A program made the translations under genes and the position numbers. Of a stretch of 41,510 nt of DNA, positions 59-41,510 are shown in pieces; positions within the stretch are counted from its first letter, which is position 1; every line of letters begins with the position of its first letter. Below the pieces are notes generated by a model. That model made no database searches and was not told where the DNA came from. It worked only from the letters and a program-made list of their open reading frames with translations. Where the stretch lies: the sequence record NC_047742.1, one strand, 5' to 3'. Origin of the DNA: Enterobacteria phage IME_EC2.

Positions 59-103
59 ATAGCACGAATTGCTAAAAGCGATTTATCAAATGTTGTTATA
101 GTT
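59..103 (+). promoter_or_regulatory. Promoter-like cassette copy 1: dyad ATAGCACGAATTGCTAAAA, 22-bp spacer, TATAGT
   Basis: Read directly; same dyad recurs 6 times, always upstream of the first ORF of a gene block and in the same orientation relative to it. Confidence 0.5.
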
Positions 104-403: not shown

Positions 404-438
404 GGCCCCTTCGGGGGCCATCCACCCAGGAGTCGAAG
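404..438 (+). promoter_or_regulatory. GC stem-loop with UUCG tetraloop (GGCCCC-TTCG-GGGGCC) fused to ATCCACCCAGGAG Shine-Dalgarno context
   Basis: Perfect 6-bp stem read directly, no U-tract; near-identical element at 12911-12946. Confidence 0.5.
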
Positions 439-4685: not shown

Positions 4686-4740
4686 TGCTTCGTCCTCGTG
4701 TTGGTGTGAAAGAATAATAACAAAGGATAAGCGGCATTGC

Positions 4741-4758
4741 TTTAGCAAAAAGTGCTAT
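4741..4758 (-). promoter_or_regulatory. Promoter-like dyad copy 2 (ATAGCACTTTTTGCTAAA on minus strand), -10-like TATTAT 22-23 bp downstream
   Basis: Read directly; lies between a terminator and the next minus-strand gene. Confidence 0.5.
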
Positions 4759-4787: not shown

Positions 4788-5528
4788 TCAGAATGGAGCG
4801 TTTTCGATGTAGACCGCGACGGCGAAGCCTTCGGGCGTGGCGCTTCGGATGTTCTTCGTTCGTGTGCTGGATCCGCCCAGTCTCGACCAGCCCGGATTAT
4901 CCTTAACAGCCGGGACGCTCTGGAATGCCGGGAAGCGGAAGCCGCCACCGCACCAGATCCCCGTCTGCTTCGGGTACGCGTCCCGCGCCGGATAGATCTC
5001 CGGGTAGAGGCTATGCTGGTGATCCTCCGGCAAGTAGCCGCCGAAGTTGTAGGGGTGGAACCAGTGATCGCAAGGTCGCCACATCGTGGAGAGCCGGGAG
5101 ATCTTCGGATTCTCCAGCATCCAGGGGACCAGCGTTTTGTCCTCATAGTCGCCGTTTTCGTACCCGGCAAACGTAGCCACCTGCTCGACCATCTTCGCCA
5201 GCGCGACGGCCTTCTCCTGGAAGCGTGGATCCTTCTTGCGCTTCGCTTCCCACCATCTGGCCCCGGTACAGGTTAGATCGGTGCATTCAGCAAAGGAGGC
5301 CACGAAGATCACGCCCGGCCCGACTTCATCGGCGATTCTGAGCGCTTCTACTTCCGTGTTGTCTGCGTCGAACATCCGGCCCACACGGATCAGGTTCGGC
5401 TCGTCGGCGTCTGGGTGGATCCCTGGCTCGTGCTGCCCGTCATACATCCAGCATTCCACGCCAGCCTCCAGCCACTTGTCCACCATGATCCGGGTCAGGT
5501 TAAACAGGAAAATCGCCTTATGCTTCAC
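4788..5528 (-). CDS. hypothetical protein (246 aa) in Dam/clamp-like operon
   Basis: ORF 4788..5561 trimmed to GTG (VKHKAIF) with AGGA upstream; start is uncertain (an ATG 14 codons downstream is an alternative); no family recognised. Confidence 0.55.
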   Translation of the reverse strand: MKHKAIFLFNLTRIMVDKWLEAGVECWMYDGQHEPGIHPDADEPNLIRVGRMFDADNTEVEALRIADEVGPGVIFVASFAECTDLTCTGARWWEAKRKKDPRFQEKAVALAKMVEQVATFAGYENGDYEDKTLVPWMLENPKISRLSTMWRPCDHWFHPYNFGGYLPEDHQHSLYPEIYPARDAYPKQTGIWCGGGFRFPAFQSVPAVKDNPGWSRLGGSSTRTKNIRSATPEGFAVAVYIENAPF

Positions 5529-5751
5529 GGTTCTGATCCTTCTCGTACTCGTCGGCGTCACGCTTGATCAGCGCGTCCCACTGGTCCATATGTACCGGGT
5601 TATAGTCCTGCTCGAAAGAGAGATCGAGCGCCTCGGCGAAGTGCTCGGCCTCCTCACGGGAGGCCACCAGCTTACGCGCCATTAACTCGTCCGCGACCTT
5701 CTCCTGGAAGATGGCCCAGCGGCTATTAGTGTGACCGTCGTTATATTTCAT
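5518..5751 (-). CDS. hypothetical protein (77 aa, acidic)
   Basis: ORF track. Confidence 0.5.
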   Translation of the reverse strand: MKYNDGHTNSRWAIFQEKVADELMARKLVASREEAEHFAEALDLSFEQDYNPVHMDQWDALIKRDADEYEKDQNREA

Positions 5752-7049: not shown

Positions 7050-7068
7050 TTTTAGCAAAAAGTGCTAT
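7050..7068 (-). promoter_or_regulatory. Promoter-like dyad copy 3 (ATAGCACTTTTTGCTAAAA on minus strand), TATCGT 22 bp downstream
   Basis: Read directly; about 58 bp upstream of the Dam start codon. Confidence 0.5.
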
Positions 7069-7151: not shown

Positions 7152-7968
7152 ACCCGAACGCCCCCGCAAGATGCCCGCCGACGCATGGCCTCCCCGTCCT
7201 CTCGTAGCCGTACAGGAAAACCTCGTCCGGGTCAGTGTAGACGAACCGGATCTCCCGATCGCCATCGTAGATCGCCGACGCCTGGATCGCGTTCATAGGC
7301 CGGAACGTCAGCCAGACCTCCGCCTCCCCTCGCGCCGCCACGTTCACGGCATGGACCGGATCCGCCACCAGATACACCGGAGCGTCCGGCGCTGGGTGGA
7401 TCAGCCCTACCGCGCCCCACGTCGGGCCACCAGCGGCAAACACCACAGACCTGTCGGAGCCGATCTTCGCCACGTTGCACCACGGCCCCAGCGATCCCCC
7501 CAGTGGACGAGCGCATGGAACATACAGGAAGCCGTCGCGCATTGCGCCTTTGCTCATGACCTTTTCCACGTCCTCCGGGGTCAGCTCCCAGTCCTGCGCG
7601 GGCTTGTCCTGCTGGCGGGCATACTTGCGGGCCTCTTTGACGATCGTTTCCCGCTTCTCCGGGGTGAGTCCGCCTATCCAGTCGCCCAGGTCGTTGATCG
7701 CTTCGTTGAATGGCTGCGATCTGCTGGTCATAAACCAAAACATGCCATCACGAGCGCCACCGCACGAGCCGGAACAGTACCCGAAGCCCTCGGCCTTCTT
7801 CGTCTGCTGCTTATGGCCCCAGCGAAAGCGATCCGTCCCGCCGCATATCGGGCAAGGCTGGTGATTGCCGTTAAACGCCTTGCGGTCCCAGCCGCACAGA
7901 TCGAGGAGCGCCTGTTCCCACTTGCCGGGCATCGCGGCGAGAACGTCCTCTTTTTTATAAATTGCCAT
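7150..7968 (-). CDS. putative DNA primase (P4-type Zn-ribbon plus TOPRIM-like region)
   Basis: HQPCPICGGTDRFRW zinc-binding motif typical of phage/plasmid primases; AGGAGG SD. Confidence 0.55.
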   Translation of the reverse strand: MAIYKKEDVLAAMPGKWEQALLDLCGWDRKAFNGNHQPCPICGGTDRFRWGHKQQTKKAEGFGYCSGSCGGARDGMFWFMTSRSQPFNEAINDLGDWIGGLTPEKRETIVKEARKYARQQDKPAQDWELTPEDVEKVMSKGAMRDGFLYVPCARPLGGSLGPWCNVAKIGSDRSVVFAAGGPTWGAVGLIHPAPDAPVYLVADPVHAVNVAARGEAEVWLTFRPMNAIQASAIYDGDREIRFVYTDPDEVFLYGYERTGRPCVGGHLAGAFG

Positions 7969-12351: not shown

Positions 12352-12903
12352 ATGGCATCACGCGGCGTTAACAAGGTGATTCTGGTCGGCAATCTGGGCC
12401 AGGATCCCGAAGTGCGTTATATGCCGTCGGGTGGAGCGGTGGCGAACATTACGATCGCCACCTCTGAATCCTGGCGCGACAAGCAGACGGGCGAACAGAA
12501 AGAACAGACGGAATGGCATCGCGTCGTATTGTTCGGCAAGCTGGCGGAGGTCGCCGGGGAGTATCTGCGCAAGGGTTCACAGGTTTACATTGAGGGCCAG
12601 CTTAGGACGCGCAAATGGACGGACCAAAGCGGCGCGGAGAAGTACACGACGGAGGTCGTCGTGAACGTCGGCGGCACTATGCAAATGCTCGGCGGGAAGA
12701 AAGAGGGAGGCCAGTCTGGGGGGAATGGACCTACCCACTCCGGCGGCGGTGGCAATTCTCGCAATTCTCCGGGCCGTGGCGCGTCTAATTCGCAAAATCC
12801 GGGCAAGGGTAGCGGGTCGGGTCCTGCGTCGTCTGGAGGCGCTTCTGGGGCCTCTAATGGCGGGGAGCCTCCGATGGACTTTGACGACGATATACCGTTT
12901 TAA
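12352..12903 (+). CDS. ssb: single-stranded DNA-binding protein
   Basis: OB-fold SSB N-terminus ([36 protein letters not shown]), Gly-rich linker, acidic tail DDDIPF. Confidence 0.9.
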
Positions 12904-12910
12904 CGGGTGA

Positions 12911-12946
12911 GGCCCTTCGGGGCCGATCCTCCCAGGAGCCGACGAG
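12911..12946 (+). promoter_or_regulatory. UUCG-tetraloop hairpin (GGCCC-TTCG-GGGCC) fused to GATCCTCCCAGGAG SD context, copy 2
   Basis: Near-identical to element at 404-438; directly precedes the HNH start codon. Confidence 0.5.
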
Positions 12947-13387
12947 ATGAAACAATGCGCCATCTGTCACGAATCGAAGCCGCTGGAGGAGTTCCACAGG
13001 AACAAGAGCAAGAAGGACGGGAGGGACTCGCGCTGTCGCCAGTGTAAGAGCGGGCTTTATAAGAGTTACTACCACGGCGATCCAGCCCGAAAGGAGCGGA
13101 TCATCGAAAACGTTAAAACGTACCAGGCCGGACCGGGGCGAGAGAAGGCGAACGCCACAAAGTCCAGCTATCACACAAAACATCCAAAGAAGCGCCGCGC
13201 CCATAATCTGGTTTATAACGCGATACGGCGCGGAGAGCTAACGAGGGGGCCGTGTGAGGTCTGCGGAGCGGAGAAGGTAGTGGGACACCATGACGACTAC
13301 GATCGCCCGTTAGAGGTCCGCTGGCTCTGCGAGAGGCATCATAAAGAGTGGCATCTGGTTAACGGTGAAGCGCTTAACCCAGATTGA
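12947..13387 (+). CDS. HNH endonuclease
   Basis: N-terminal Cys cluster (CAICH...CRQCK) and C-terminal HNH-type motif (VVGHHDDYDRPLEVRWLCERHHKEWH). Confidence 0.8.
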   Translation: MKQCAICHESKPLEEFHRNKSKKDGRDSRCRQCKSGLYKSYYHGDPARKERIIENVKTYQAGPGREKANATKSSYHTKHPKKRRAHNLVYNAIRRGELTRGPCEVCGAEKVVGHHDDYDRPLEVRWLCERHHKEWHLVNGEALNPD

Positions 13388-13967: not shown

Positions 13968-13994
13968 AAGGGGCCAATTAAGGCCCCTTTTTTT
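13968..13994. terminator. bidirectional intrinsic terminator (GGGGCC-AATTAA-GGCCCC + T7)
   Basis: Hairpin with T-run on plus side and U-rich on minus side, at convergence of the plus-strand operon and tailspike gene. Confidence 0.7.
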
Positions 13995-16233: not shown

Positions 16234-16272
16234 TGTGTTCTCCATGAGAAAGGGGGCTTATCGCCCCCGTTG

Positions 16273-19296: not shown

Positions 19297-20621
19297 TTAT
19301 AGCCCCTCCGGTAGAAAACCGTATTTTTCCTGAAATTGAGCCTTAACGCTAGGGGTAGGGTTCTGCATCAGGTAATTAATCGCGGCTTGCGCGTTCTGCT
19401 GCGGAATCCCCCCAGCGCTGAGGCGTCCGACGGCTTCCTGTTTCGCGTCGTCCTGCTTGATCTCGCGACGGTAGGACTCCACGCGCCCGCCCTGCGACTT
19501 CTCGATCGCGTCCTTGCCCTTGCTGAGTGCGTTCACGTAGCGCGTCATAACGTCCTTAAGCTGCTGCTCGCTCATGGTGCGCGGGTCTGCGTTGATCAGC
19601 GCCTGAGCGGCTGCGCGGCCCTCCTGCTCGGTCACTGGACCAGTACCACGCAAAGACTGAATACCCGCGACGCGGGCCTGGTCTTTAAGCTGGTTAAACT
19701 GGTTCATGATCTCCGCCGTGGCATCGCCGCCACCAGTAACCCACGACGCGCCCCTGTTAATCGCGCCCAGGTTGCCCGTCACGTAGGCCAGATCCTTACG
19801 CTGGAGGAGTCGCTGGGCCTGATCGATCGCCGTGGTGATCGGGGCGAGTTGCGTCTCGTAGGTCTGGAGAAAATCGCGCTTCGTGTTGAGGCTGTCGGCT
19901 TGCATTTTTGCTGCTGCTGCACGTACTTCTGTCGCTCAATATCGTTCTTTTCCTGCGCGATCCTCGTGTTGAGTCGCTCGGTCTGGAGTCCGATATATTT
20001 CAGATTTCGGTCTGCCGCGTTGCTCGCTGCGGTGACGTCCTGCCCCCTGATTACGGTCTGGTTCTTCATGTACTCTTTCGCGTAGTCCAGTTGGTCCTTG
20101 CTGGTATTGCTCGCCAGGTGGAGCGCCTGGACTGAGCGCTTGAACGCTTCCGGGTCCTGCGCTGCCGCCTGGTAGGCCACCTGCGGATCGATTCCCAGCG
20201 CCTGGAGCGCCGGGGCGTTCTGCTGGACGAATTGCTGGGCCATCTTCGGCCCCTGCGAGATCGCGACGTCGGCCTGGCTTGCAAGCTGGGATCCCTGCTG
20301 GCGTCGAATATCATCCACCAGTCCGAGGCGCTTCTGGAGCGCTTCGATCTGGGTAGGGTATTTGTAGGCCAGTTCGGAGATCTTGGACGGGTCGCCCGCT
20401 GCTGCTTGCCAGTCCTGATTGAACTGGGCCATTTGCGCCTGATTAGCTTGCGCCGCCTGAGTGGCGAGGCCCTGCTGGCGGTTCGCGATCTGCTGCGCCG
20501 TGTTGTTCTGAATCTGCCCGATATTGGCGAGGGTGTTAGTCCCCGCCGCCTGGATGTTCTGGAGGTTGTTCCACAGATCGCCCGGATCTGCGCCACCGCC
20601 ACCGCCTAGTAATTGCGCCAT
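19297..20621 (-). CDS. ejection protein (gp20 position), reading frame interrupted near 19905-19912
   Basis: Two ORFs (19779..20621 and 19297..19905) overlap in different frames; both Gln/Ala-rich; the upstream ORF becomes junk-like after an A5 run where the downstream frame opens. Confidence 0.45.
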
Positions 20622-22448: not shown

Positions 22449-22463
22449 GATCCCCCCAGTGGA

Positions 22464-27347: not shown

Positions 27348-27473
27348 TGTAGATCCTCGTTTGTTGCATACGCGATGTTTTCGCCCATCGGTGGCGGGTG
27401 TAAGTTTAAGCGAGGACGGCGGGAAAATGCAAACAGGGGAGATCGCGATTAACGATCCCCCCAGTGTGGCGGG

Positions 27474-27740: not shown

Positions 27741-28173
27741 ACGATCTCGGCGTCCTCCACGTCGTCGTCTTTGCGCGGGTTGACTTCTTTCGCGCTGTCG
27801 GCTGCTGCCACGTAGTCGCCCTCGATCGGGCCTTTGTAGGTCAGTTGTTTGATGCTCGCGATATCGGCGAGGAGTTTCTGTTCCTGCATGTAGAAGTTAG
27901 CGCGGAGTGACTGGAGGCCAGTCTCCAGCAGTGGGAGAGCCAGTTCCGCGATGCGCTCGGCGGTCGGCTCGGTGTAGACGATCTCGATCTCACGAGTTTC
28001 TAACAGGACCATAGCCGGGTCCGTGTTGTCCTTGATGTGCTTCTCCACGCTGTACAGGTCGCCCAGGTCGTGGTCGGAGACGTAAGTCTCCCCGCGCTTG
28101 TAGAAGCTGGAGCGTGTACCGTCCGCGACGCACAGGCAAATGAATTGTTTTTGATGTAAGTTTTAGTAGTCAT
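27737..28173 (-). CDS. hypothetical protein, apparent frame change near 28140 (A5 run)
   Basis: ATG at 28173 with SD opens a frame (MTTKTYIKN) that turns junk-like; the -1 frame is protein-like and continues into ORF 27737..28048, which has no good start of its own. Confidence 0.4.
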
Positions 28174-28248: not shown

Positions 28249-28267
28249 TTTTAGCAATTCGTGCTAT
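28249..28267 (-). promoter_or_regulatory. Promoter-like dyad copy 4 (ATAGCACGAATTGCTAAAA on minus strand), TATATT 22 bp downstream
   Basis: Read directly; followed by conserved leader hairpin GGCGGGG-AATGGT-CCCCGCC and SD. Confidence 0.5.
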
Positions 28268-28680
28268 TTGGCGCGAGCGCCGATCATGGCTTGCCAGGTA
28301 AACACGACCGTATCGGAAAGAAGCTCGTCCACGCCTTCCTCCGCCATCTGCTCGTAAAGTCCATCGAGAGCGCCGGGGATCTGTTCCCAAAGGGCTTTAC
28401 GTCCGGCCTCGATCTGCTCCGCCGTCGGCTGGAGTTCCACCTCGATCGGAGCGGGTTCGACCTCTCCCGCCTTCACCTGCGGCTCCGCGTTGGTCATGAG
28501 TTCCGAAGCGCGAGCGCCGACCAGCGCCAGCGCCAGGCCATACGCCGCCAGATCCTCCTCGGTCGGCTGCTGGATGAAGCGAGCCGCCAGACGCGCCTCG
28601 TGTGCCTTCACTTTGTCGAGGATCCCCATCTCGTCGGCCTGAGCCAGAAGAACGGCGCGGATTACTTTTTCCTGGTTCAT
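28264..28680 (-). CDS. hypothetical protein (138 aa, acidic)
   Basis: ORF track. Confidence 0.5.
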   Translation of the reverse strand: MNQEKVIRAVLLAQADEMGILDKVKAHEARLAARFIQQPTEEDLAAYGLALALVGARASELMTNAEPQVKAGEVEPAPIEVELQPTAEQIEAGRKALWEQIPGALDGLYEQMAEEGVDELLSDTVVFTWQAMIGARAK

Positions 28681-28898
28681 GCGTAAGCCCCTTCGAATTG
28701 TGCGATCGACATTGGCGAGTAATACAGATTTAACTCGTACCCACAGATCCGCCCGTCTGGGCCGTTGATCGGCTCGCGGACTTTGACCTCCACGCGGCGC
28801 TCGTTGTCCGGGAACTCCGTCACGCTCACGATGTTACGGACCGGGAGGAGATACTTTTCCCCGGCGGCGTCTTTGACTGCTATCAGTGATCGGGCCAT
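28677..28898 (-). CDS. hypothetical protein (73 aa)
   Basis: ORF track; ATGA overlap with next gene. Confidence 0.5.
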   Translation of the reverse strand: MARSLIAVKDAAGEKYLLPVRNIVSVTEFPDNERRVEVKVREPINGPDGRICGYELNLYYSPMSIAQFEGAYA

Positions 28899-28993
28899 TC
28901 AAAACTCCTTTGTAATGGTTTAGTGATGTGTCGAGGCAAAGAATAGCCCGGACTTGCCGGGCTTGTCTTTAGCTTTTCGTGCGGTCCGACCAG

Positions 28994-31231
28994 TTACAGG
29001 CCAGCGAGTCCTAACTGGCGATCGGCGGACTGCTGCGCCTGGCGTTCTGCCATCTCGCGAGCGTTCCGATCCTCCTGCTGGTTGTGGCCTTGCCCCTGAG
29101 CCTTGAGGAACAGATCCGCCTGTTTGTGGGCGTCGCTGTTCTGCTGGCTCACGTACTTCTGGAGGACGGCGATCGCGTTCATTAGCTGATCCTGCGGGAT
29201 AGCCGCCGCCTCTGCCATCGTCTTGACCGTCTGCGCCTGTTTCAGATTGCCGTCGGACGCGGTGCTCTGCGCCTTGAGTTGCAATTCTAAGCGCTTGTTC
29301 TCCTGCTCCATCACTGCGGCCTGTCCCTGCTGCGCTACGCCCTGAGCGGCTACCATCTCCGGGTTTTCCTGCTGCTGGGCCGCTTGCTGGGCCTGTTGAA
29401 CAAGGGCTTTTTCTTCGTCCGTCTGCGGCTTAATGATGCCATTCAGGAGAAGCTGGCGGCGGCTGTACTCTTTGAAGTCCTGCAAGCCTTCGCCGTCCAT
29501 GTTCATGATGATCAGGCCCATGACTACGGCGGCGTTCGGGTCGCCTGGTGCCATCGACTGGAGGAGCGTCGTCAGGCTGCGGACGGTTGCGGTCCGTTTG
29601 GTGCTGCTGGACTCACCCACATCGGCCTCGACCTCATATTTCCCGCGTTTCAGGTCGTTAATCGCGATCGCCTCGTCCGTGTCGCGGTCGATCACTTTCC
29701 CGGTCATTAACACGAGATCGTCGGTCCCGTCCTCGTTCTTGATTCGGACGTAGTTCTCCGAGCCGTAGACCTTGCGGGCCGCGCTGAGGTAAACACGCCC
29801 GCAATGGCGGAGGGTTTTCCCCAGGTTGTCCATGTAGAGAGCGCCCTGTCCGTCCATACGGGCGAAAATGGCCTCCACGGTTTCGGTCGCAAGGTTCGAC
29901 GGAAGGGCCTCGACCTGGGAGGATCCGACGATCTGCTGGATAGTGCTCCCGGTGTACTGAAGGACCGCCGCCAGCGCTGGAGAGAGCGGAGTCGATGGCG
30001 TGTAACCCAGTGGCCCGGCTTGCTGCACGACCTCACCAGCGGCATTACGGAGCGATTTCGCGGGCAAGTATGCCGGGCGTTTCGTGTTACGTTCCCCCCA
30101 GGCGTCCGCCAGCTTGCCGGGAATCATGTCGATATCCATGATCGGGATGTTATCGCCGCCAGACTGCGCGGCCTGGTCCGCCATCATGGACACGATCAGG
30201 TTTTCCAGACGTTGCGCGTCGAGGGCCTGGGTCGCGTGACCGCTTACGCGCTCCATGTTGTCGATAAACGAGCGGCGGGCGTTGAACACGAAGATCGGGA
30301 TCCATTCGAACGGGATCAGCTTCGGCTCCTCGATCCATTCACCGCCGGACATAAGGCCGCAATAGACCTTACGGCGTTTCACTTTGCGGTCCTTCTGGCG
30401 CTCCCAGCCTCCGGCCTTAAGCTCGTCCTCGATCTGCTCGATCTCGTCCTCGTCGTACACCTCCACGTCCCCGGTGAGTGGGTTCTTATAGGAGATCACG
30501 GTGGTGTCCTCGATCTTCACCTCGTAGTAACGCGCCAGGTAGATCGCGTCCTTCGTGGCCCAGTCGAATTGTTTCCCGGTGTCCATCGCCAGCAGGTCCT
30601 CCGGGGCGAGCGCGTCGGGATATTTCTCCTCGTACTTGTCCGGGGTCATGCTGAATAGCTCCGCCATCCACATGGCATCCGAACGATCGTACATTTTGGA
30701 GTCCTGATCGATAAACAGGCACGAGGCCGGATCATAGATCGGATAAAAGACAATATGCCGGGCCTCGTTGTCCGGGTCGAACTCGTCCTCCAGTTCGGTG
30801 TCCATGCGGAAAGCGCCCATTCCGCCCGTCACGCCGTCGTCGTAGGTATTGTCCACGGACTCCGGCCCGTTCGACTCCTGGAAGTCGGCGCGGAACTTGC
30901 CGTTTAACTTGTCCGCCAGTTCTTCGGAGGCCTGGGTGTCCTTCGGGCGGAAAGTAACATTGATGCGGTTCAGTCGGTAGTCGGTGATAATGCGATCCAC
31001 CTCGCGCCCGACCTTGTTAAGCTCGAATCGAGGGTATTTCTGGAATCGTTCATCATCCATCGCAAAGCCGGAGTTCGTCGATCCTTCCCATTGTGCGCCC
31101 GGAATGCGGACGAAACGGGCCGTTTCGATCATCTTCTTACGACTGGACTCCTCGCTCCCGATCGCGGCGCTTAACTTATTACGTGCGCATTCCTGCCAGT
31201 TCTGCGCCTTCTTCGTTGCTCGTGCCATCAT
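28994..31231 (-). CDS. portal protein, P22 gp1-like
   Basis: Aligns by eye with P22 portal (YYEV, VKRRKVY versus IKRRRVY, PEMVAAQGVAQQGQAAV versus PAMVQAQGVLLQGQAEL); Gln-rich C-terminal barrel region. Confidence 0.9.
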   Translation of the reverse strand: MMARATKKAQNWQECARNKLSAAIGSEESSRKKMIETARFVRIPGAQWEGSTNSGFAMDDERFQKYPRFELNKVGREVDRIITDYRLNRINVTFRPKDTQASEELADKLNGKFRADFQESNGPESVDNTYDDGVTGGMGAFRMDTELEDEFDPDNEARHIVFYPIYDPASCLFIDQDSKMYDRSDAMWMAELFSMTPDKYEEKYPDALAPEDLLAMDTGKQFDWATKDAIYLARYYEVKIEDTTVISYKNPLTGDVEVYDEDEIEQIEDELKAGGWERQKDRKVKRRKVYCGLMSGGEWIEEPKLIPFEWIPIFVFNARRSFIDNMERVSGHATQALDAQRLENLIVSMMADQAAQSGGDNIPIMDIDMIPGKLADAWGERNTKRPAYLPAKSLRNAAGEVVQQAGPLGYTPSTPLSPALAAVLQYTGSTIQQIVGSSQVEALPSNLATETVEAIFARMDGQGALYMDNLGKTLRHCGRVYLSAARKVYGSENYVRIKNEDGTDDLVLMTGKVIDRDTDEAIAINDLKRGKYEVEADVGESSSTKRTATVRSLTTLLQSMAPGDPNAAVVMGLIIMNMDGEGLQDFKEYSRRQLLLNGIIKPQTDEEKALVQQAQQAAQQQENPEMVAAQGVAQQGQAAVMEQENKRLELQLKAQSTASDGNLKQAQTVKTMAEAAAIPQDQLMNAIAVLQKYVSQQNSDAHKQADLFLKAQGQGHNQQEDRNAREMAERQAQQSADRQLGLAGL

Positions 31232-31246
31232 AATCTCCGGTATGGG

Positions 31247-32869
31247 TTAGCGGTTGCTCGGCACATTATAGCCGGAATAATCTTCATCTTTCGAGCGCTC
31301 CGGCGGTTGCATCAGCATACACAATACATCAGCCATGCCCGGAGACTTCATTTTCAGCTTAGTGCGCATCTGCGGCTTAGGCATACGCGCAAATTTCCCG
31401 TTGGTGTTGTAAATACGCGGAATGCGGCACACTTCGGCGCGGAGTTTGGCCATATGCTCCCCGATCCCCTCGCTGTCCAGGCTGATCAGGTCGTCCGGGT
31501 TGTGATAGACGCCCTTCACCACGGCCTCGTAAGTCCTTTCGAAGCGCTTCCGTAACAGGTAGATATCCTGGGAGCCACGGTTCGCGAAAGCGTCGATATT
31601 CTTCTGAATGTTGTCGCCCTTCGCCTTGTTGTTGAGCCAGTGATCCAGCTCCACAGGGTTGTCCGGGAACTTCACGCCGTCCCCGGCGTTGTAGCCATCT
31701 ACGAGGACGTTCGTCCCGGCGTATGAGTCCGTAACCTGGCGGCGGAGGCCAGCGCCCAGTCCGGCGCGGTCCCACACGAACGCCTCGATCCCGTGGTCCT
31801 TCGCCGTGTTGATCGCCTTGTCTACGGAGTCGTTCGCGTCCCCTTCGAACCATTCCTCCATATGGGTGACGACGGAGCCGAAGCGCTCGCCATATGCCTT
31901 GTTATCCGCCCCGACGTCCGCCGGGTCGAGTGCGCCGATCCTCATGCCGGACGGCTTGAATCCGAGTTTCTTGTGGGCGTCGATCGCCGCGTCGAACCAT
32001 TCCGCCGGGATAATCGCATCCGGTACGGAGTCGTTAAACATCCCGCCCCATACGTGATCAAACAGCGCTTTCGAGAGGGTTACGCGGTCGAACTCCATCT
32101 CCGATCGAAGCTCTGGGGGGAACCACGGATTATCTTCCCAGTTCACGCGGATAATCAGGTGGAGATCGTCCTCGTAAATGCCGTCCCGCTGGAGATCCTC
32201 CCAGAATGGAATGAGAAAACGCTGAGAAAACGCATCCTCCGAGGAGCCGGGGTTCGCGGTGAATAGCATCATGCCGCCCGTTTCGCGCATGGTCGGCGTA
32301 AGCTGGCGGAGAGACTCGGCGGAAAAGGTCTGCGCCTCCTCGCCCCAGAAGCGACGGAAGCCGAACGCGGACTTAACGCCCGCCGGGTCCCTGGCCATCC
32401 CCTTAAATCGGATGATCGCGCCGTTGGAGTGGCGGATCTCCTTCTCCAGTACCTCGAAGCCGTCCAGCCCGTAAGCCTCGATCCGGTTGACGAGGAGCGG
32501 GTGGACTGAATCCTTGATCGATGCCTGATACTCACGGAGACACATCGCGCTCGCTGCCTCGTCGTGGGCGTCCGCGTCGATGATCCCGCCGACGGTGAGC
32601 GACTTCCCGGAGCCACGGCCCCCGACCAGGATAATAAAGCGCTTAGGACGGAGGAGGATCGGGGTCAGACACTCCGCGATCGTAATGTCGTGCGGCTCGG
32701 AGGTGTAGATCCACTCTCCGTTAACCTTCTTCATGTTGTAGCAGTGCTTGGCGCTGGTCCCGTCCGGCTCATAGACGCCATAGACCAGCCCGCCGTCTCG
32801 TGCGACGTAAGCGGCCCGCCCCTCCAGGCGAGCCAGTCGATCGAGGTTATCCTTTCGATTTTTTGCCAT
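31247..32869 (-). CDS. terL: terminase large subunit
   Basis: Walker A VGGRGSGKS; position directly upstream of portal; N-terminal 45 aa may be an extension (start uncertain). Confidence 0.85.
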   Translation of the reverse strand: MAKNRKDNLDRLARLEGRAAYVARDGGLVYGVYEPDGTSAKHCYNMKKVNGEWIYTSEPHDITIAECLTPILLRPKRFIILVGGRGSGKSLTVGGIIDADAHDEAASAMCLREYQASIKDSVHPLLVNRIEAYGLDGFEVLEKEIRHSNGAIIRFKGMARDPAGVKSAFGFRRFWGEEAQTFSAESLRQLTPTMRETGGMMLFTANPGSSEDAFSQRFLIPFWEDLQRDGIYEDDLHLIIRVNWEDNPWFPPELRSEMEFDRVTLSKALFDHVWGGMFNDSVPDAIIPAEWFDAAIDAHKKLGFKPSGMRIGALDPADVGADNKAYGERFGSVVTHMEEWFEGDANDSVDKAINTAKDHGIEAFVWDRAGLGAGLRRQVTDSYAGTNVLVDGYNAGDGVKFPDNPVELDHWLNNKAKGDNIQKNIDAFANRGSQDIYLLRKRFERTYEAVVKGVYHNPDDLISLDSEGIGEHMAKLRAEVCRIPRIYNTNGKFARMPKPQMRTKLKMKSPGMADVLCMLMQPPERSKDEDYSGYNVPSNR

Positions 32870-36211: not shown

Positions 36212-36230
36212 TTTTAGCAATTCGTGCTAT
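36212..36230 (-). promoter_or_regulatory. Promoter-like dyad copy 5 (ATAGCACGAATTGCTAAAA on minus strand), TATAGT 22 bp downstream
   Basis: Read directly; flanking about 90 bp nearly identical to copy 1 (inverted) and copy 4. Confidence 0.5.
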
Positions 36231-36856: not shown

Positions 36857-37127
36857 CAGATAATCCCTCGCTCATGTTGTCGGCGACCTGCTGCATGTAG
36901 ATCGCGTAAAGGTTCTGGCCTATCGCCAGGATATCCTCCGGGCGGAGGATGGCCCGCGCCGTGTGGACGTTGGAGAGCGCCGCCACCAGGACGTCGCGCT
37001 GTACGTGGTTAAGCCGGAGTTCGCCCCACGCCGGGGAGTCTGCCCGGTGGATCACCTGCTCGATCTTGAGGTGGTCGAACCACACGAGGATCTCGCGCTC
37101 GTCTGGCTTTTCGGTTGCGTCTGTCAT
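36846..37127 (-). CDS. hypothetical protein (93 aa)
   Basis: ORF track. Confidence 0.5.
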   Translation of the reverse strand: MTDATEKPDEREILVWFDHLKIEQVIHRADSPAWGELRLNHVQRDVLVAALSNVHTARAILRPEDILAIGQNLYAIYMQQVADNMSEGLSDGL

Positions 37128-37170
37128 TGGATCCTCCCAGGATGCCCGGCTCTCGACCGGGCGGTGGTTG

Positions 37171-37518: not shown

Positions 37519-37537
37519 GTTTTAGCAATTCGTGCTA
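37519..37537 (-). promoter_or_regulatory. Promoter-like dyad copy 6 (ATAGCACGAATTGCTAAAA on minus strand), TAATAT 22 bp downstream
   Basis: Read directly; overlaps the stop of the upstream small ORF. Confidence 0.5.
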
Positions 37538-37717
37538 TTTATCCTTTCTCATTCGACGGAGTGATCGGACCAGATCGACGACGGCCCAGCCAGACGCCAG
37601 CAGGAACGGCGCGAGGACCGCCAGCTTTTCCCAGTTGGTCAGGATCGCGTCGGTCCCTCTGGTCATGCCGATCCAGGCTATCACCAGGACCTCGTAAGCG
37701 AAGGCGAGCCAGATCAT
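37535..37717 (-). CDS. small membrane protein (60 aa)
   Basis: Two hydrophobic segments; ORF track. Confidence 0.45.
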   Translation of the reverse strand: MIWLAFAYEVLVIAWIGMTRGTDAILTNWEKLAVLAPFLLASGWAVVDLVRSLRRMRKDK

Positions 37718-38692: not shown

Positions 38693-38848
38693 GGAACACA
38701 ACGCCCCGTTAAAAGTCACTCAGATCGTCGGATCCTTCGGTCGGTTTCCAGTCGGTCGGGAGTGGCTTCTGATCCCGGATTCCACCCAGGAGCGGAGCCG
38801 CTTCGGTTGAGGCGGTCAGCGTTTCGTCCCCTGCCATTTTGATGATCA

Positions 38849-40396
38849 TCATTTTTTGGTCGCATGTTCGAAGGCGTGGAAAAAGTCCGTCCGCTTAATC
38901 GGCGGCTCTGCGAAGTTGCGGAAGTGATCGGATAACATGCCTTTGGTCAGCTTCGGCAAGCGGTAGCCCTTGTCCTTGCGCTGCTGCGAGTATTCCACGA
39001 CGTAGGCCAGCAGTCGGATCGCCTGTTCCTCCTTCTTGCTGCGCTTGCGCGTGTCCTCCGGCTTCTCGCCCTCGTCCTTCTCGGCTGGCACTGCCTCCAG
39101 CGCGTTAATGACGACCAGCGTCCCCAGGTTGTCGCCGATCTCCCACGCCGCCGGGTTGGCCTTCGCCTCCGGGCGTACAGGCTGCATCCTCGCCAGCGCC
39201 TCGCGCTTCATCTTCACCAGGTCAGGCGGTAACTTCGCGGACTTCGTGCGCATGGCTCGCGCCGGGAGAAGCGCACAGCCTTTGGCCTTCGTGTGCTCAA
39301 TCACAAAAAGCTCTTTGTCCTTGCACTTCTTCACCATGATCTCGAATCCGGCGTTTGCCCTGAGCGTTGACGCGCCACGAGCGCCGCGCTCGGTGTCCTT
39401 CCCGGTGTGGTGGATGATCATCACGGCACAGTTAAGCCATTCAGCCAGTAACGCCGCGTTACGCATCAGGATCGCCGCCACGTTGTTGTCGTTCTCGTTG
39501 AAGTCGGTCCCGCCCTCCCAGCGGTCCGGCTCGTCGCCCTTGCCTGGGATCATGCGCTCGCCCACTTTCTGGCCCGCGCTGTTGGCGCTGTAGGTATCGA
39601 TCACGATCAGGGAAAGCGGGTTCAGGCCGAAGAATGGGGACGCCTTGATGGTTGCCGCGAACGTCTGGAGTTCGCTCTCGCGGTGTAGTGGGACCTGCTG
39701 GGACAATACCCAAAAGTTGGGTAACGGCTCGTTCTTGTTCTGCGTGTACTTCCATCCCGCGTAACGTTCACGGACGCCGCTCGCATCCTCCGGCGCGAAG
39801 TACATCACGGATCCCTGTCGGACTGGCAAGCCGCCGAAGTCGATCCCGGTGGCGACACAAATCGCCATTTGTAACGCTGCGAACGTTTTCTTTGCGCCGG
39901 ACTCGCCGACCAGGAAGCCCACGGAGCGCTCCGGGATCAGCGACTGGATCACATAGTTAACGGGCTTGATCTCGTTCGACTTGTTCAGGCTGGCGATCAG
40001 CGGGTCGTCCATTGCCTCGACCGCCAGCGCCTCGTCGATCTTCTTGCGCTGCTTCTCGCGCTGCTTCGCGAGGAGTTCCTGGCGACGTGCTTCGTCCTTC
40101 TCCTCGTCGGTGAGGTCTGACGTCTTGACGATCGTCGGCTTGTCGTTGCGGACGGTTGCCGTCCACTCTGCGGCCTCGTGCTCGTCGAAGTCGAAGAACG
40201 CCCCGGCATCCTGGGCGGATTCTGCTTCTCTCGCCGCGTACAGGCTGGCCTGTTCCTCGTAGAACTCCATAGGAGCCTCTGGCACGTCGTCAGCAGGTGG
40301 AGGCGTTACCGGGCCGGAGAACTCGCCCCGGACCATCTCGATCAGCTCCTCCTCGCTGCGCTCTGGTGTCGGCATTACTTCATCATAATCAGTCAT
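38849..40396 (-). CDS. RepA-like RecA-fold AAA ATPase (putative replicative helicase)
   Basis: Walker A GESGAKKT, Walker B-like LIVIDTYS, IIHHTGKD; acidic disordered N-terminal region. Confidence 0.7.
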   Translation of the reverse strand: MTDYDEVMPTPERSEEELIEMVRGEFSGPVTPPPADDVPEAPMEFYEEQASLYAAREAESAQDAGAFFDFDEHEAAEWTATVRNDKPTIVKTSDLTDEEKDEARRQELLAKQREKQRKKIDEALAVEAMDDPLIASLNKSNEIKPVNYVIQSLIPERSVGFLVGESGAKKTFAALQMAICVATGIDFGGLPVRQGSVMYFAPEDASGVRERYAGWKYTQNKNEPLPNFWVLSQQVPLHRESELQTFAATIKASPFFGLNPLSLIVIDTYSANSAGQKVGERMIPGKGDEPDRWEGGTDFNENDNNVAAILMRNAALLAEWLNCAVMIIHHTGKDTERGARGASTLRANAGFEIMVKKCKDKELFVIEHTKAKGCALLPARAMRTKSAKLPPDLVKMKREALARMQPVRPEAKANPAAWEIGDNLGTLVVINALEAVPAEKDEGEKPEDTRKRSKKEEQAIRLLAYVVEYSQQRKDKGYRLPKLTKGMLSDHFRNFAEPPIKRTDFFHAFEHATKK

Positions 40397-40536: not shown

Positions 40537-40980
40537 GTGGACTTATTCAAACAGAAGCGAACTACGGCCCCGGCTACCGCCGGAGCGCCGCGCAAGACGG
40601 CGGCGGAGAAGCGCCAGGAGATACTCGACAAGATAGCGCCCACTGATCTGTCGGTGCTGGACGCTATCGACAAGGGGCTGATCGATCCGTTTGTACCCAC
40701 GGACGAGACTCGGAAGGCGTTCTCCATGCTCAAGCCGTCGGAGCAATTGTTCGCCGCGTTCTTCGAATGCCCCGGCGTTGACCAGCGGAAGCTCTCCGCG
40801 CTCTGCCGTCACACGGCAAAGATGGAACGCGCCGGACTGCTGCGTGATCTGCGCGTTGACCGTTCGAAGCTGGCCCCGCCAGTGTCGGATCCGATGGAGT
40901 TCCCCCCAGGCGTCGAGATTGGCCCGGAGTTGGCCCTCGCTGCCTTACAATGTAAACAAGCCATGAGGAAAGAGAGATGA
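40537..40980 (+). CDS. hypothetical protein (147 aa)
   Basis: GTG start with GGAGG SD; divergent from the AAA ATPase gene. Confidence 0.5.
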   Translation: MDLFKQKRTTAPATAGAPRKTAAEKRQEILDKIAPTDLSVLDAIDKGLIDPFVPTDETRKAFSMLKPSEQLFAAFFECPGVDQRKLSALCRHTAKMERAGLLRDLRVDRSKLAPPVSDPMEFPPGVEIGPELALAALQCKQAMRKER

Positions 40981-41510
40981 TCAGATATATCGCAGTAGGT
41001 GAGCCGGAATTTAATTGCGAGTGGTTCCTGAGTATCGCCGCGATCAATTCGTTCAGCCTGGACGAAAAGACCGGACGCGCCCGGCTCCACTACACGCTCC
41101 CCGACACGGAGGAGGGAACGATGGAGGATTGTCTGAGCGTGGAGCCGTTCGAAAAGGTTCGCCCGCTGCTGCTGGGTCTGCCGCCTGATCCGCTTATCCT
41201 GGATCTGAGTAAGGCCGAACAGGACAAGATCCGCCGGACGTTAAACGCCACCCAGCAGACGCTCGACGAACTCCAGCCACGGCTCCAGCCTGGCCCTACT
41301 GTCGGCCTCGACTCGGACGTGTGGGCCGTGGTCAAACTGCTGGAGTCTCGCGAGTGGGCCGAACACTGCACGACGACCGAACTCGGCGGACGACTGGAGG
41401 CTGAGATCACGAAGCTGATCGGGCATGATAACGCGGCGACGAACAAGCTCCAGCGGGCGGAGCAATTGCTGGCTGAGATCCATCACGCGGTAAACAACGA
41501 CGGCGGGCTG
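40977..41510 (+). CDS. hypothetical protein, 3' partial (runs off window end)
   Basis: ATG overlapping upstream stop (ATGA); 178 codons open to the last base; absent from ORF track because no stop is reached. Confidence 0.5.
   Translation, partial: MIRYIAVGEPEFNCEWFLSIAAINSFSLDEKTGRARLHYTLPDTEEGTMEDCLSVEPFEKVRPLLLGLPPDPLILDLSKAEQDKIRRTLNATQQTLDELQPRLQPGPTVGLDSDVWAVVKLLESREWAEHCTTTELGGRLEAEITKLIGHDNAATNKLQRAEQLLAEIHHAVNNDGGL

Follow-up and report, generated by a model that had tools for sequence, protein, structure and literature searches.

Why does nearly the same short sequence stand between a UUCG hairpin and a start codon at two distant loci of Enterobacteria phage IME_EC2? The first locus lies at positions 404-438 of the window, by which we mean the whole stretch of 41,510 nucleotides analysed (NC_047742.1), and the second at 12911-12946. 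A preliminary description had treated hairpin and initiation context as one repeated unit. The question is whether the two parts belong together and what the repeated part may serve.

Two intercistronic hairpins and their start codons

On the plus strand, the first hairpin reads GGCCCC-TTCG-GGGGCC (404-419); ATCCACCCAGGAG comes next (420-432), and the start codon ATG is at 439. The second reads GGCCC-TTCG-GGGCC (12911-12924), with a stem of 5 bp instead of 6, and leads into GATCCTCCCAGGAG (12925-12938) and the ATG at 12947. The context common to both on the 3' side is (C/G)ATCC(A/T)CCCAGGAG and then ATG, and the 13-mers next to the two hairpins differ by 1 base, so that the near-identical arrangement previously described at these loci is borne out by the sequence. 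The shared context is a copy of a strand-asymmetric word at the DNA level, RWTCCNCCCAG (CTGGGNGGAWY on the G-rich strand). At the first unit the word occupies 419-429 (+) as CATCCACCCAG, with its core TCCACCCAG at 421-429, and its 3' end runs into GGAG (429-432), the Shine-Dalgarno sequence for ATG 439. At the second, GATCCTCCCAG (12925-12935, +) overlaps GGAG (12935-12938), the Shine-Dalgarno sequence of the EndoVII/HNH-like gene starting at ATG 12947.

Both hairpins begin about 6-8 nt past the TAA stop of the upstream gene (395-397 for the first; 12901-12903, the stop of ssb, for the second), and the first folds as drawn. The stems (6 bp and 5 bp) consist entirely of G-C pairs and close 4-nt loops of the cUNCGg type, C(UUCG)G in both cases. 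No U/T run was found 3' of the stems, where ATCCACCC and GATCCTCC stand instead, and neither hairpin appeared in a terminator scan of the window that finds many T-tract hairpins elsewhere; the earlier judgement that they are not typical intrinsic terminators is upheld. RNase III processing calls for a duplex some 20 bp long, or about two helical turns, and pairing beyond the 5-6 bp of these stems was not predicted. There was also no Rfam match at gathering score anywhere in the window.

Conservation in related phages had been put forward as a check, and both hairpin-plus-word units are indeed kept in all eight close relatives, except that the word is lost at the first unit in Kc237; in the other seven the word at 419-429 is invariant at the orthologous position. 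The first hairpin has TTCG, TCCG, TACG or TGCG loops in the eight relatives, with a 5-bp version in KMB41, and the second is likewise present in all eight, the Sortsnevirus version having a 6-bp stem and a TCCG loop. Loops stay UNCG across these genomes, with the sole exception of a 6-nt loop in the second hairpin of Kc237, and stem length varies through paired C...G insertions. At the second unit GATCCTCCCAGG is invariant in 9/9 genomes, and GGAG is replaced by GGGG in Sortsnevirus. Since a GC-rich hairpin is present in nearly every intergenic gap of the genome, we regard these two as ordinary intercistronic stem-loops and not as special elements. Being conserved and without a U-tract, they fit some role on the mRNA, and are probably 3'-end or stability elements, or weak terminators, like those in most gaps.

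A word repeated on both strands

Allowing up to 2 mismatches, ATCCACCCAGGAG has 14 copies in the window against 1.06 expected from shuffles, and 0 of 100 shuffles reached 14. RWTCCNCCCAG is the most over-represented word of the window. Specifically, its core TCCNCCCAG has 32 copies in the window where an order-3 Markov model predicts 3.7, and the 10-mer ATCCNCCCAG ("strict" copies) has 25 where 0.87 are expected. In this phage clade the density of the word is about one copy per 1.3 kb. Variants with one mismatch, considered over the nine positions after the first two, were no commoner than a rough chance estimate. Apart from the copies described individually, 23 core copies of TCCNCCCAG (each 9 nt from its start) lie within 4872-40909, with starts at 4872, 6126, 8425, 10234, 10797, 18330, 19407, 22451, 24769, 30093, 32196, 34915 and 40901 on the plus strand and at 5411, 9778, 12716, 17932, 21481, 24525, 26955, 29915, 32113 and 40211 on the minus strand.

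The word is found on both strands and in all six reading frames, and 26 of the 32 core copies are inside genes. The 25 strict copies comprise 10 sense, 10 antisense and 5 intergenic ones, with encoded peptides that all differ. The word is independent of genes, reading frames and transcription direction, and a peptide-coding explanation is ruled out by the use of six frames and the differing peptides. Because 20 of the 25 strict copies are intragenic and 10 are antisense, in place of the confinement to 5' UTRs or spacers in sense orientation that an RNA element would show, neither translation nor an RNA function explains the repetition. The few intergenic copies sit in short spacers that run from an intercistronic hairpin to the next start codon, and the purine-rich part of the word (CCCAGGAG, or GGGAGGA when inverted) doubles there as the Shine-Dalgarno sequence; this position creates the appearance of a hairpin fused to a start context. 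The preliminary description was right to place GGAG 6-8 nt before each ATG, but the start-specific repeat unit that it built on this does not stand, the TCCACCCAGG part being one of the 32 genome-wide core copies.

A third hairpin-word-start unit on the minus strand (37127-37162) separates the two components further. Its hairpin is GCCCGG-N7-CCGGGC (37144-37162), and its word is inverted, with GATCCTCCCAG on the plus strand at 37130-37140. The mRNA accordingly reads CUGGGAGGAUC, with GGGAGGA as the Shine-Dalgarno sequence 5 nt before the ATG (first base 37127, minus strand), and the word is kept in sortsyn, ST231, Lumpael, KMB41 and Sortsne. This inversion indicates that the hairpin relates to the mRNA and that the orientation of the word is independent of the hairpin. 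Another intergenic copy (core 27456-27464, +) falls within a hairpin at 27436-27464 (GGGGGGAUCG...CGAUCUCCCC, -21 kcal/mol, z = -4.55); the complement of the copy forms one arm of this strong hairpin, which has a short T-rich tail on the minus strand. The "partial copy" reported at about 38781-38792 also exists, as a core copy TCCACCCAG (38781-38789, +) within TTCCACCCAGGAG at 38780-38792. The non-coding location given for it was mistaken, since the corresponding region of sortsyn and Lumpael encodes the C-terminal part of the AAA_25 helicase; in the window, that gene is frameshifted by the loss of 1 nt from an A-run near 38851-38856.

The reading of the hairpin and TCCACCCAGGAG as an RNA module for processing, stability or translational enhancement is consistent with the existence of three conserved stop-hairpin-word-start units, in each of which the word supplies the Shine-Dalgarno sequence. 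As an explanation of the repeat it is refuted by the intragenic copies. It would also have to accommodate a different RNA sequence in the inverted third unit, the conservation of ATCC.CC 5' of the Shine-Dalgarno sequence, a segment with no known role in initiation, the lack of an Rfam match, and stems too short for RNase III, and we consider it highly improbable.

Enrichment of the word extends to 11 related genomes, some of them distant (28 copies in Kc166B, 18 in Skarpretter, 16 in C130_2), and covers Murrayvirus, Sortsnevirus, Skarpretter, C130_2 and Kc166B. RWTCCNCCCAG has 0-1 copies in P22, T7, the T1-like phages, Ymer, LPSTLL and K207. When other dispersed words were sought, P22 gave none, T7 only its promoters, LPSTLL and K207 only clustered operator-like repeats, and Ymer a coding tandem repeat. 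A primase-based search for related loci returned only close relatives. In comparisons with Sortsnevirus, identity is 0.89-0.94 over the eight specified core bases, 0.75-0.77 in the flanks and 0.70-0.82 at the N, and the free N thus varies between genera as the flanks do. The word is kept across genera at synonymous and non-synonymous positions alike. As judged from its over-representation in related genomes and from these alignments, it is under selection.

The T1-like phages T1, Henu8, Roth87 and 25988IV have a different but alignable word, aACCARTCAG against ATCCNCCCAG, with the shared frame AWCC..YCAG. In T1 this related word, ACCANTCAG, has 30 copies against 2.2 expected, and the counterpart of the G-rich CTGGGNGGAW is CTGANTGGT. 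A 21-nt intergenic repeat of T1-like phages, aaATAGCACnnnTTGnTAAAA, which was reported in the 2024 re-annotation of TLS (PMC11447400), has 6 copies in the window. As a repeat common to both, it confirms the T1-like character of the early, replication and regulatory part of the genome. This repeat is exclusively intergenic and co-oriented with transcription, whereas the word is mostly intragenic and strand-independent.

The 8 nt 3' of the C-rich strand of the word are depleted in T (z = -5.7), with only weak deviations on the upstream side. Copies alternate between strands (P = 0.0012 in the window, 0.0003 in Kc166B). Intervals in which a G-strand copy is followed by a copy with the C-strand on top have medians of 320-460 bp, compared with 2.0-2.2 kb for the other order. 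The copies of a facing pair are 80-1000 bp from each other (81-970 bp in the window), with about 0.5-5 kb (median about 2 kb) between pairs, and with this geometry any enzyme tracking 5'->3' from a long interval would meet the G-strand orientation first. This bias in the flank (z = -7.2) and this pairing recur in the T1-like phages. The one-sided flank bias and the ordered pairs may be taken as signs of polarity, albeit indirect ones. The tightest facing pair lies in the spanin gene (2356-2445; CTGGGGGGATC, core 2356-2364 on the minus strand, and AATCCACCCAG, core 2437-2445 on the plus strand), with 81 nt from start to start; Lumpael, IME279, Kc237, Sortsne, Skarpretter and C130_2 retain this pair with a spacing of 80-81 nt. 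A second tight pair (7392-7503; cores 7392-7400, minus, and 7495-7503, plus) lies in the primase gene, in a stretch encoding residues conserved in all primase homologues (the CN and T183 region). MITE- or REP-like insertions are ruled out, as the tight pairs enclose conserved primase coding sequence and part of the spanin gene.

Candidate readers and functions of the word

With regard to what reads the word, the two clades differ in their words, share replication and recombination genes and grow on the same host (both T1 and sortsyn grow on E. coli K-12), which suggests that the reader is probably phage-encoded. The genes common to both clades encode a primase, a RadD-like helicase, VRR-NUC, ExoVIII and Erf. 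Several other candidates were rejected. The EndoVII/HNH gene beside the second copy is absent from Kc166B and from all T1-likes; the small DNA_BRE_C-annotated protein of Lumpael (wrapping 40977 to 72) has no Pfam match and occurs only in close relatives; and phrog_2676 (5521-5751 in the window; ST19 in T1), though encoded by T1-likes and by most Murrayvirus-like phages and missing from the genomes that have no word, is also missing from Sortsnevirus, which retains the word. No small DNA-binding protein common to all word-carrying genomes was found. The sequences of E. coli Chi, KOPS, the DnaA box, the 16S anti-Shine-Dalgarno and the tRNA 3' end do not match the word. A Dam target was rejected given that 25988IV has no detectable Dam homologue and the T1 word no GATC, and a Dcm target given that no Dcm homologue was detected in T1.

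Our preferred explanation, held with low confidence, is that the word may be a Chi-like polar cis signal read by a recombination or replication enzyme of the phage. The reader would belong to the T1-type replication and recombination module, which comprises a RadD-like SF2 helicase, a VRR-NUC nuclease, an ExoVIII-type 5'-3' exonuclease, Erf, SSB and primase. Tracking 5'->3' on the G-rich strand, such an enzyme would meet the A-poor flank first and then CTGGGNGGAWY, where it would pause or switch; this would limit resection of the phage's own DNA and leave host DNA, presumed to carry the word rarely, unprotected. Like such a signal, the word is short, sharp, asymmetric and over-represented, and among the genomes examined all Murrayvirus-like ones carry it and all others have 0-1 copies. 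T1-like phages degrade host DNA by a route that is listed as an open question (PMC11447400). Against this explanation, Ymer, LPSTLL and K207 carry the same gene module and no dispersed word; therefore, either the module alone is insufficient or their signals are too short for our scan. To our knowledge, RadD, VRR-NUC and RecE-type enzymes do not read sequences of 9-11 nt, and known Chi sites do not occur in tight facing pairs, an arrangement that a Chi-like model gives no firm reason to expect. An RNA primer starting with pppAG fits the 8 nt after ...CAG, T-poor and purine-rich as they are, at least as well.

This last point leads to the main rival, a preferred priming signal, which we consider unlikely. 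Here the G-rich strand would be the template, with a 5'-CTG-3' start triplet as for E. coli DnaG, a cryptic 3' G and the seven bases 3' of it (GGNGGAW) as an extended recognition element. The primer would start with pppAG, and the A-poor 8 nt on the 5' side would template a purine-rich primer of ~10 nt that is passed to the host Pol III, so that the copies would set Okazaki or leading-strand starts, with diverging primers from facing pairs. It is consistent with this proposal that in both clades the word finishes with CAG, which is CTG on the template, and the next 8 nt are poor in T and rich in purines, that same-strand spacing is 2-3.5 kb, the size of Okazaki fragments, and that the phages have a Zn-ribbon primase and no DNA polymerase (PMC11447400). 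Further precedent comes from T7 primase, for which GTC flanked by G/C/T-rich (A-poor) sequence is the best binding site and leads to longer primers (PMC8599759), and from AtTwinkle, which uses more than one cryptic base (PMC5737085). However, the Kc166B primase shares only ~31% identity with the Murrayvirus type and its second zinc knuckle looks T1-like, yet Kc166B carries the Murrayvirus word, and the primase of Ymer is closer (40-42%), yet Ymer lacks the word. With these mismatches the word does not track the primase. No known primase needs 9-11 specified bases, and the DNA between paired copies shows no AT-rich unwinding element, its GC content in six genomes being the same within pairs as between them.

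Sites for a phage dsDNA-binding protein with an architectural, roadblock or regulatory role appear less likely again. The protein would read about one helical turn with the central N facing away, and the pairs would be bound by a dimer or bridged; the span of 10-11 bp with one free central position, the inverted pairs and the HTH and D5-like regulators encoded by the phage all suit this idea. Transcription-factor sites, however, usually tolerate mismatches, and weak variants are not enriched here. Pair spacing varies from 81 to 970 bp in the window with no helical phasing by eye, most sites are intragenic and in both orientations, no small DNA-binding protein is shared by all carriers of the word, and simple binding would hardly account for the one-sided flank bias. 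The sharpness of the sequence and its presence on both strands would also be expected of an enzyme recognition site, as in site-specific single-strand interruptions of the kind found in T5, phiKMV-like phages and Pseudomonas phage tf. A phage nickase would then cut one strand per word, and facing pairs would give nicks on opposite strands. The genome encodes VRR-NUC, an EndoVII/HNH-like protein and a TOPRIM-like domain in the primase, and there is a precedent in phage tf, which reportedly has a 9-nt nick consensus on both strands. Nonetheless, Kc166B and the T1-likes have a word without the EndoVII/HNH gene, and opposite-strand nicks 80-100 bp apart in essential genes risk double-strand breaks; we regard nicking as improbable.

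Likeness to known signals and significance

Chi sites are polar 8-mers, sharply defined and over-represented, whose sequence varies from one bacterial clade to another. The E. coli form (GCTGGTGG, a regulator of RecBCD) and the word are both short, sharp, G-rich, strand-asymmetric, over-represented and clade-specific, and the word has a one-sided flank bias in addition. CTGGGNGGAW, free N included, is not GCTGGTGG, and true E. coli Chi occurs 8 times in the window against 5.6 expected. The density of the word is ~3-fold above that of Chi in E. coli; it forms tight facing pairs where Chi follows the direction of replication, and its reader would be phage-encoded, unlike RecBCD. KOPS (GGGNAGGG, which orient FtsK) and the word are G-rich 8-9-mers with one central N, polar and over-represented. 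The KOPS sequence differs, however, and KOPS point to dif in two long arms, whereas the word alternates every 1-2 kb; we know of no link between phage DNA and FtsK. Primase sites (5'-GTC-3' for T7 gp4, 5'-CTG-3' for E. coli DnaG, 5'-(G/C)GGA-3' for AtTwinkle) resemble the word in that the strand that would be its template likewise has CTG, but they measure 3-5 nt and are not over-represented, in contrast with the 9-11 fixed nt of the word and its lack of co-variation with the primase. The nick consensuses of T5, phiKMV and tf are, like the word, sharp, phage-specific, genome-wide repeats (on both strands in tf). They were defined by mapped nicks, whereas the word is known from sequence alone, has more copies and is paired.

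A precedent for the enzyme proposed in the Chi-like explanation is lambda exonuclease, a 5'-3' recombination exonuclease that pauses in a strand- and orientation-specific manner at ~9 nt, GGCGATTCT, in cosNL (PMC7496540). Among the proteins of the phage studied here is an ExoVIII-type exonuclease whose distribution follows that of the word, although the ExoVIII/RecE family differs from lambda Exo. To the best of our knowledge, the lambda pause site is known in cosNL and no over-representation of it has been reported.

Full-text literature searches for both word strings and for reports of the T1 motif found nothing relevant, and the 21-nt intergenic repeat is the only one given in the 2024 re-annotation of the T1-like phage TLS (PMC11447400). 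Both words are apparently undescribed. An intercistronic hairpin followed by a Shine-Dalgarno sequence is common; a genome-wide word behind such units is not ordinary. Each of two phage groups with a replication and recombination module in common maintains ~30 copies of a word that is sharp, polar and paired. A more general reading, which we judge rather doubtful, is that T1-type lytic phages, classical T1 among them, may use a polar word of 9-11 nt to mark their genomes, each clade having its own (RWTCCNCCCAG in the Murrayvirus-like podophages, ACCARTCAG in Drexlerviridae), as either a Chi counterpart or a ~10-nt primase signal. If the primase version were true, this would be the first primase with ~10-nt recognition and replication would be restricted to phage DNA, which would bear on why primases ignore most trinucleotide sites, an open question (PMC8599759). 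Synthetic recoding or engineering of these therapeutic-candidate phages could destroy word sites unnoticed. If instead the Chi-counterpart version were true, the word would govern a phage nuclease or helicase such that host DNA is destroyed and the phage's own is spared. Such self-marking would explain how phages that have unmodified DNA and no known RecBCD inhibitor degrade the DNA of their host yet spare their own.

A dispersed word in Murrayvirus and related phages

The sequence shared downstream of the two hairpins had been taken for a translation-initiation context in the preliminary description. Our results indicate that it is instead a copy of a genome-wide word, found sense and antisense and in all frames. 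In the window, ATCCACCCAGGAG had 14 matches at ≤2 mismatches (~1 expected), and k-mer counting returned ATCCACCCAG and ATCCCCCCAG as the commonest 10-mers. Under an order-3 Markov model, the strict form ATCCNCCCAG was present in 25 copies (0.87 expected) and the 9-nt core TCCNCCCAG in 32 (3.7 expected), of which 31 fit the full form RWTCCNCCCAG. Recognition is sharp, because variants differing by one base, anywhere in the nine positions that follow the first two, were not commoner than a rough chance expectation. Ten of the 25 strict copies are sense, 10 antisense and 5 intergenic, which rules out an RNA or translation explanation of the repeat; a peptide explanation was also ruled out, given that the copies use every frame and encode different peptides.

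The word was the top de novo motif in all relatives tested. Copies of the strict form (core copies in brackets) numbered 22–26 (31–37) in Murrayvirus, 18–25 (31–36) in Sortsnevirus (Sortsne, IME279, sortkaff) and the related Kc237, 20 (28) in Kc166B, 12 (18) in Skarpretter and 11 (16) in C130_2, compared with 0 (0–1) in P22, T7, Ymer, LPSTLL, K207 and the T1-like phages (T1, Henu8, Roth87, 25988IV). The majority of window sites lie at orthologous positions in Sortsnevirus (~76% overall nucleotide identity). The N and flanking bases drift between the two, with identities of 0.89–0.94 at the eight specified core bases, 0.75–0.77 in the flanks and 0.70–0.82 at N. Few window sites could be aligned at the nucleotide level to Kc166B or Skarpretter, where 0/2 and 2/6 were retained. 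Since copy number was kept although few aligned sites were, this implies turnover of the word under selection for density.

Copies alternate between strands beyond chance (P = 0.0012 in the window, 0.0003 in Kc166B, 0.017 in Skarpretter) and form ordered pairs. Intervals with the G-rich strand on top and then the C-rich strand on top have medians of 320–460 bp (81–970 bp within the window), compared with 2.0–3.5 kb for the reverse order. Tight pairs enclose conserved coding sequence, which rules them out as inserted elements, and AT-richness between paired copies was looked for and not found. On the C-rich strand, the 8 nt on the 3' side of the word are poor in T and rich in purines (z down to −5.7); deviations on the upstream side are only weak.

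Hairpin units and other intergenic elements

Both hairpins (404–419 and 12911–12924) and their downstream sequences were confirmed at the positions first reported. The claim that the two units are nearly identical held for the 13-mers, which differ by one base, but the second stem has 5 bp rather than 6. In both units the hairpin starts 7–8 nt after a TAA stop, GGAG lies 6–8 nt upstream of the next ATG, and folding prediction gives the hairpin as drawn; Rfam returned no family match anywhere in the window. Neither hairpin carries a U-tract, as previously observed, because the word and the Shine-Dalgarno sequence occupy the next 13 nt. Conservation, left by the preliminary description to a comparison of related phages, was found across eight relatives from two genera, in which both units were kept except that the word was lost at the first unit in Kc237. 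Among these relatives the loops vary within UNCG alone (save one 6-nt loop in Kc237), and changes in stem length are paired C...G changes. A GC-rich hairpin occurs in nearly every intergenic gap of the window, the majority with T-tracts, and T1 late genes are likewise described as forming modules with terminators on their flanks (PMC11447400). The hairpins of the two units belong to the mRNA, where they most likely stabilise the 3' end or terminate transcription weakly.

A third stop-hairpin-word-start unit lies at 37127–37162 (−), with the word inverted so that the mRNA reads CUGGGAGGAUC and carries the Shine-Dalgarno sequence GGGAGGA; another inverted word precedes a start codon at 22451. 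In short spacers, whichever way the word points, it is therefore positioned so that it can also serve as a ribosome-binding site. One arm of a strong 11-bp hairpin at 27436–27462 (−; −21 kcal/mol, z = −4.55), located upstream of the scaffold gene and between it and the preceding minus-strand gene, is also a copy of the word, and a terminator scan flagged this hairpin as terminator-like. Among other palindromic GC-rich hairpins, those at 2806–2823 and 28945–28963 have T-rich tails on both strands at gene-direction switches or between convergent blocks and are likely bidirectional terminators, whereas the hairpin at 13968–13989 resembles a terminator on one strand only and that at 16252–16268 has weaker tails.

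The partial copy formerly assigned to a non-coding region is present at 38781, but inside the coding sequence for the C-terminal part of the AAA_25 (RepA/DnaB-like) helicase. The last ~50 codons of this gene are out of frame in the window relative to sortsyn through a 1-nt deletion at ~38845–38860 (A6 vs. A7 in sortsyn; an A-run in the gene, a T-run on the + strand), which may reflect an error in sequencing or assembly, or else a true truncation. Two more genes intact in sortsyn, for a 441-aa protein (a DNA transfer/ejection protein in the annotation of other records) and a 156-aa protein, seem in the window to be divided between two frames (~19899–19908 and ~28132–28153), which suggests further indels or assembly errors.

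The sequence ATAGCAC(GAA/TTT)TTGCTAAAA occurs six times between genes, on each occasion ahead of a gene and in the orientation of that gene: in the window at 59–77 (+) and at 4740–4758, 7050–7068, 28249–28267, 36212–36230 and 37520–37538 (all −). This is the 21-nt repeat aaATAGCACnnnTTGnTAAAA of T1-like phages, here in a P22-like podophage. It has been described in TLS, T1 and Rtp (PMC11447400), and was among the top k-mers of Skarpretter, C130_2, Henu8, T1 and 25988IV. The true E. coli Chi (GCTGGTGG) was near expectation in the window (8 copies vs. 5.6) and ~2.5-fold over-represented in Sortsne, IME279 and sortkaff (16–17 copies vs. 6–7 expected).

T1-type modules and a second word

The window is essentially a complete, circularly permuted Murrayvirus podophage genome. 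Its first 8 kb share 97.6% identity with Escherichia phage sortsyn, and the circular permutation follows from a 202-aa gene that crosses the window ends (40977–41510 joined to 1–72). A homologue of this gene is annotated as a DNA_BRE_C recombinase in the Lumpael record; Pfam gave no match for the 202-aa sortsyn homologue (~99% identical). The head and tail genes are P22-like and the early, replication and recombination genes T1-like. RadD-like helicase, VRR-NUC, ExoVIII and Erf are common to the window and the T1-like phages, and the primase is ~30% identical to Drexlerviridae primases.

Because the replication module is T1-like, we applied the same de novo scan to T1, Henu8, Roth87 and 25988IV. 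Each of the four contains 26–32 copies of CCANTCAG, compared with 2–15 in other genomes, and ACCANTCAG occurs 30 times in T1 (2.2 expected; P ~6e-24). The N of this word is mostly a purine, and the word can be written (A)ACCARTCAG(G), with examples in T1 (NC_005833) at 38759 (+) and 38840 (−). In T1 and the other three, likewise Drexlerviridae, it is sharp and dispersed. Like the window's word, it shows downstream T-depletion (z = −7.2), strand alternation and ordered facing pairs, and alignment of both words at their 3' ends gives a common frame, A-W-C-C-x-x-Y-C-A-G. Control scans returned nothing in P22 and promoters alone in T7. Ymer, LPSTLL and K207, with the same gene module, had no dispersed word: the repeats of LPSTLL and K207 were all clustered and operator-like, and Ymer had a tandem repeat in coding sequence. 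The latter is the highly repeated CGGCTCCGGC of Pectobacterium phage Ymer, whose RadD-like helicase gene is apparently broken (28382–31492) by a LAGLIDADG homing endonuclease ORF in the record annotation.

Full-text literature searches outside subscription journals, made with each word in either orientation, brought up nothing relevant, although an older report is possible. There is no mention of the word in papers on Murrayvirus, Sortsnevirus and Kc237, and a re-annotation of TLS, a T1-like phage, published in 2024 gives no repeat other than the 21-nt one (PMC11447400).

Candidate readers and possible roles

The protein recognising the word is most likely phage-encoded, since E. coli K-12 supports the growth of both T1 and sortsyn, yet their words differ. 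Neither the EndoVII/HNH-like gene beside the second copy nor the small protein spanning the window ends is conserved across word-carrying genomes, and both were rejected. Also rejected was phrog_2676 (T1 ST19), a small acidic protein (window 5521–5751, −; T1 39734–39985, +), because Sortsnevirus retains the word but lacks this protein. Its gene adjoins dam in T1 and KMB41 and lies two genes from dam in the window; it is present in the T1-like phages, Murrayvirus, Skarpretter, C130_2 and Kc166B and absent from Sortsnevirus, Ymer, LPSTLL and K207. Erf is mosaic. Primase type and word do not go together: the enzyme of Kc166B is ~31% identical to the Murrayvirus type, as distant as the T1 enzyme, with a zinc domain T1-like in look, and that of Ymer is closer (40–42%), yet Ymer lacks the word. 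RadD-like helicase (PDB 6jde match, E = 1e-38), ExoVIII, VRR-NUC and SSB follow genome phylogeny and are candidate readers, with none singled out.

With regard to function, we tentatively infer that the resection/unwinding enzymes of the phage itself may read the word as a Chi-like or pause signal. This is favoured because of the pair order: a 5'→3' tracking enzyme leaving a long interval would meet the G-rich orientation first, with the A-poor flank preceding it. The word is like Chi and KOPS in sharpness, length, single N, over-representation and variation between clades. A strand-specific pause at a 9-mer is known for lambda exonuclease (PMC7496540), and T1-like phages degrade host DNA (PMC11447400). 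The main rival, a priming signal, is rather doubtful. In its favour, each word finishes with CAG, whose template is CTG as in the DnaG triplet, and a primer rich in purines would be templated by the 8 nt that follow. Copies are also spaced at Okazaki-fragment size, and A-poor flanks are preferred by T7 primase (PMC8599759); however, word and primase do not co-vary. It is unlikely that the copies are binding sites for a double-strand DNA-binding protein, and use as nick sites is quite improbable.

Whether or not it acts as a Chi-like or pause signal, the word is a signal at the level of DNA, polar and sharply defined, whose density is under selection and whose copies are arranged in facing pairs; such signals are confined to phage clades that have a T1-type module for replication and recombination.
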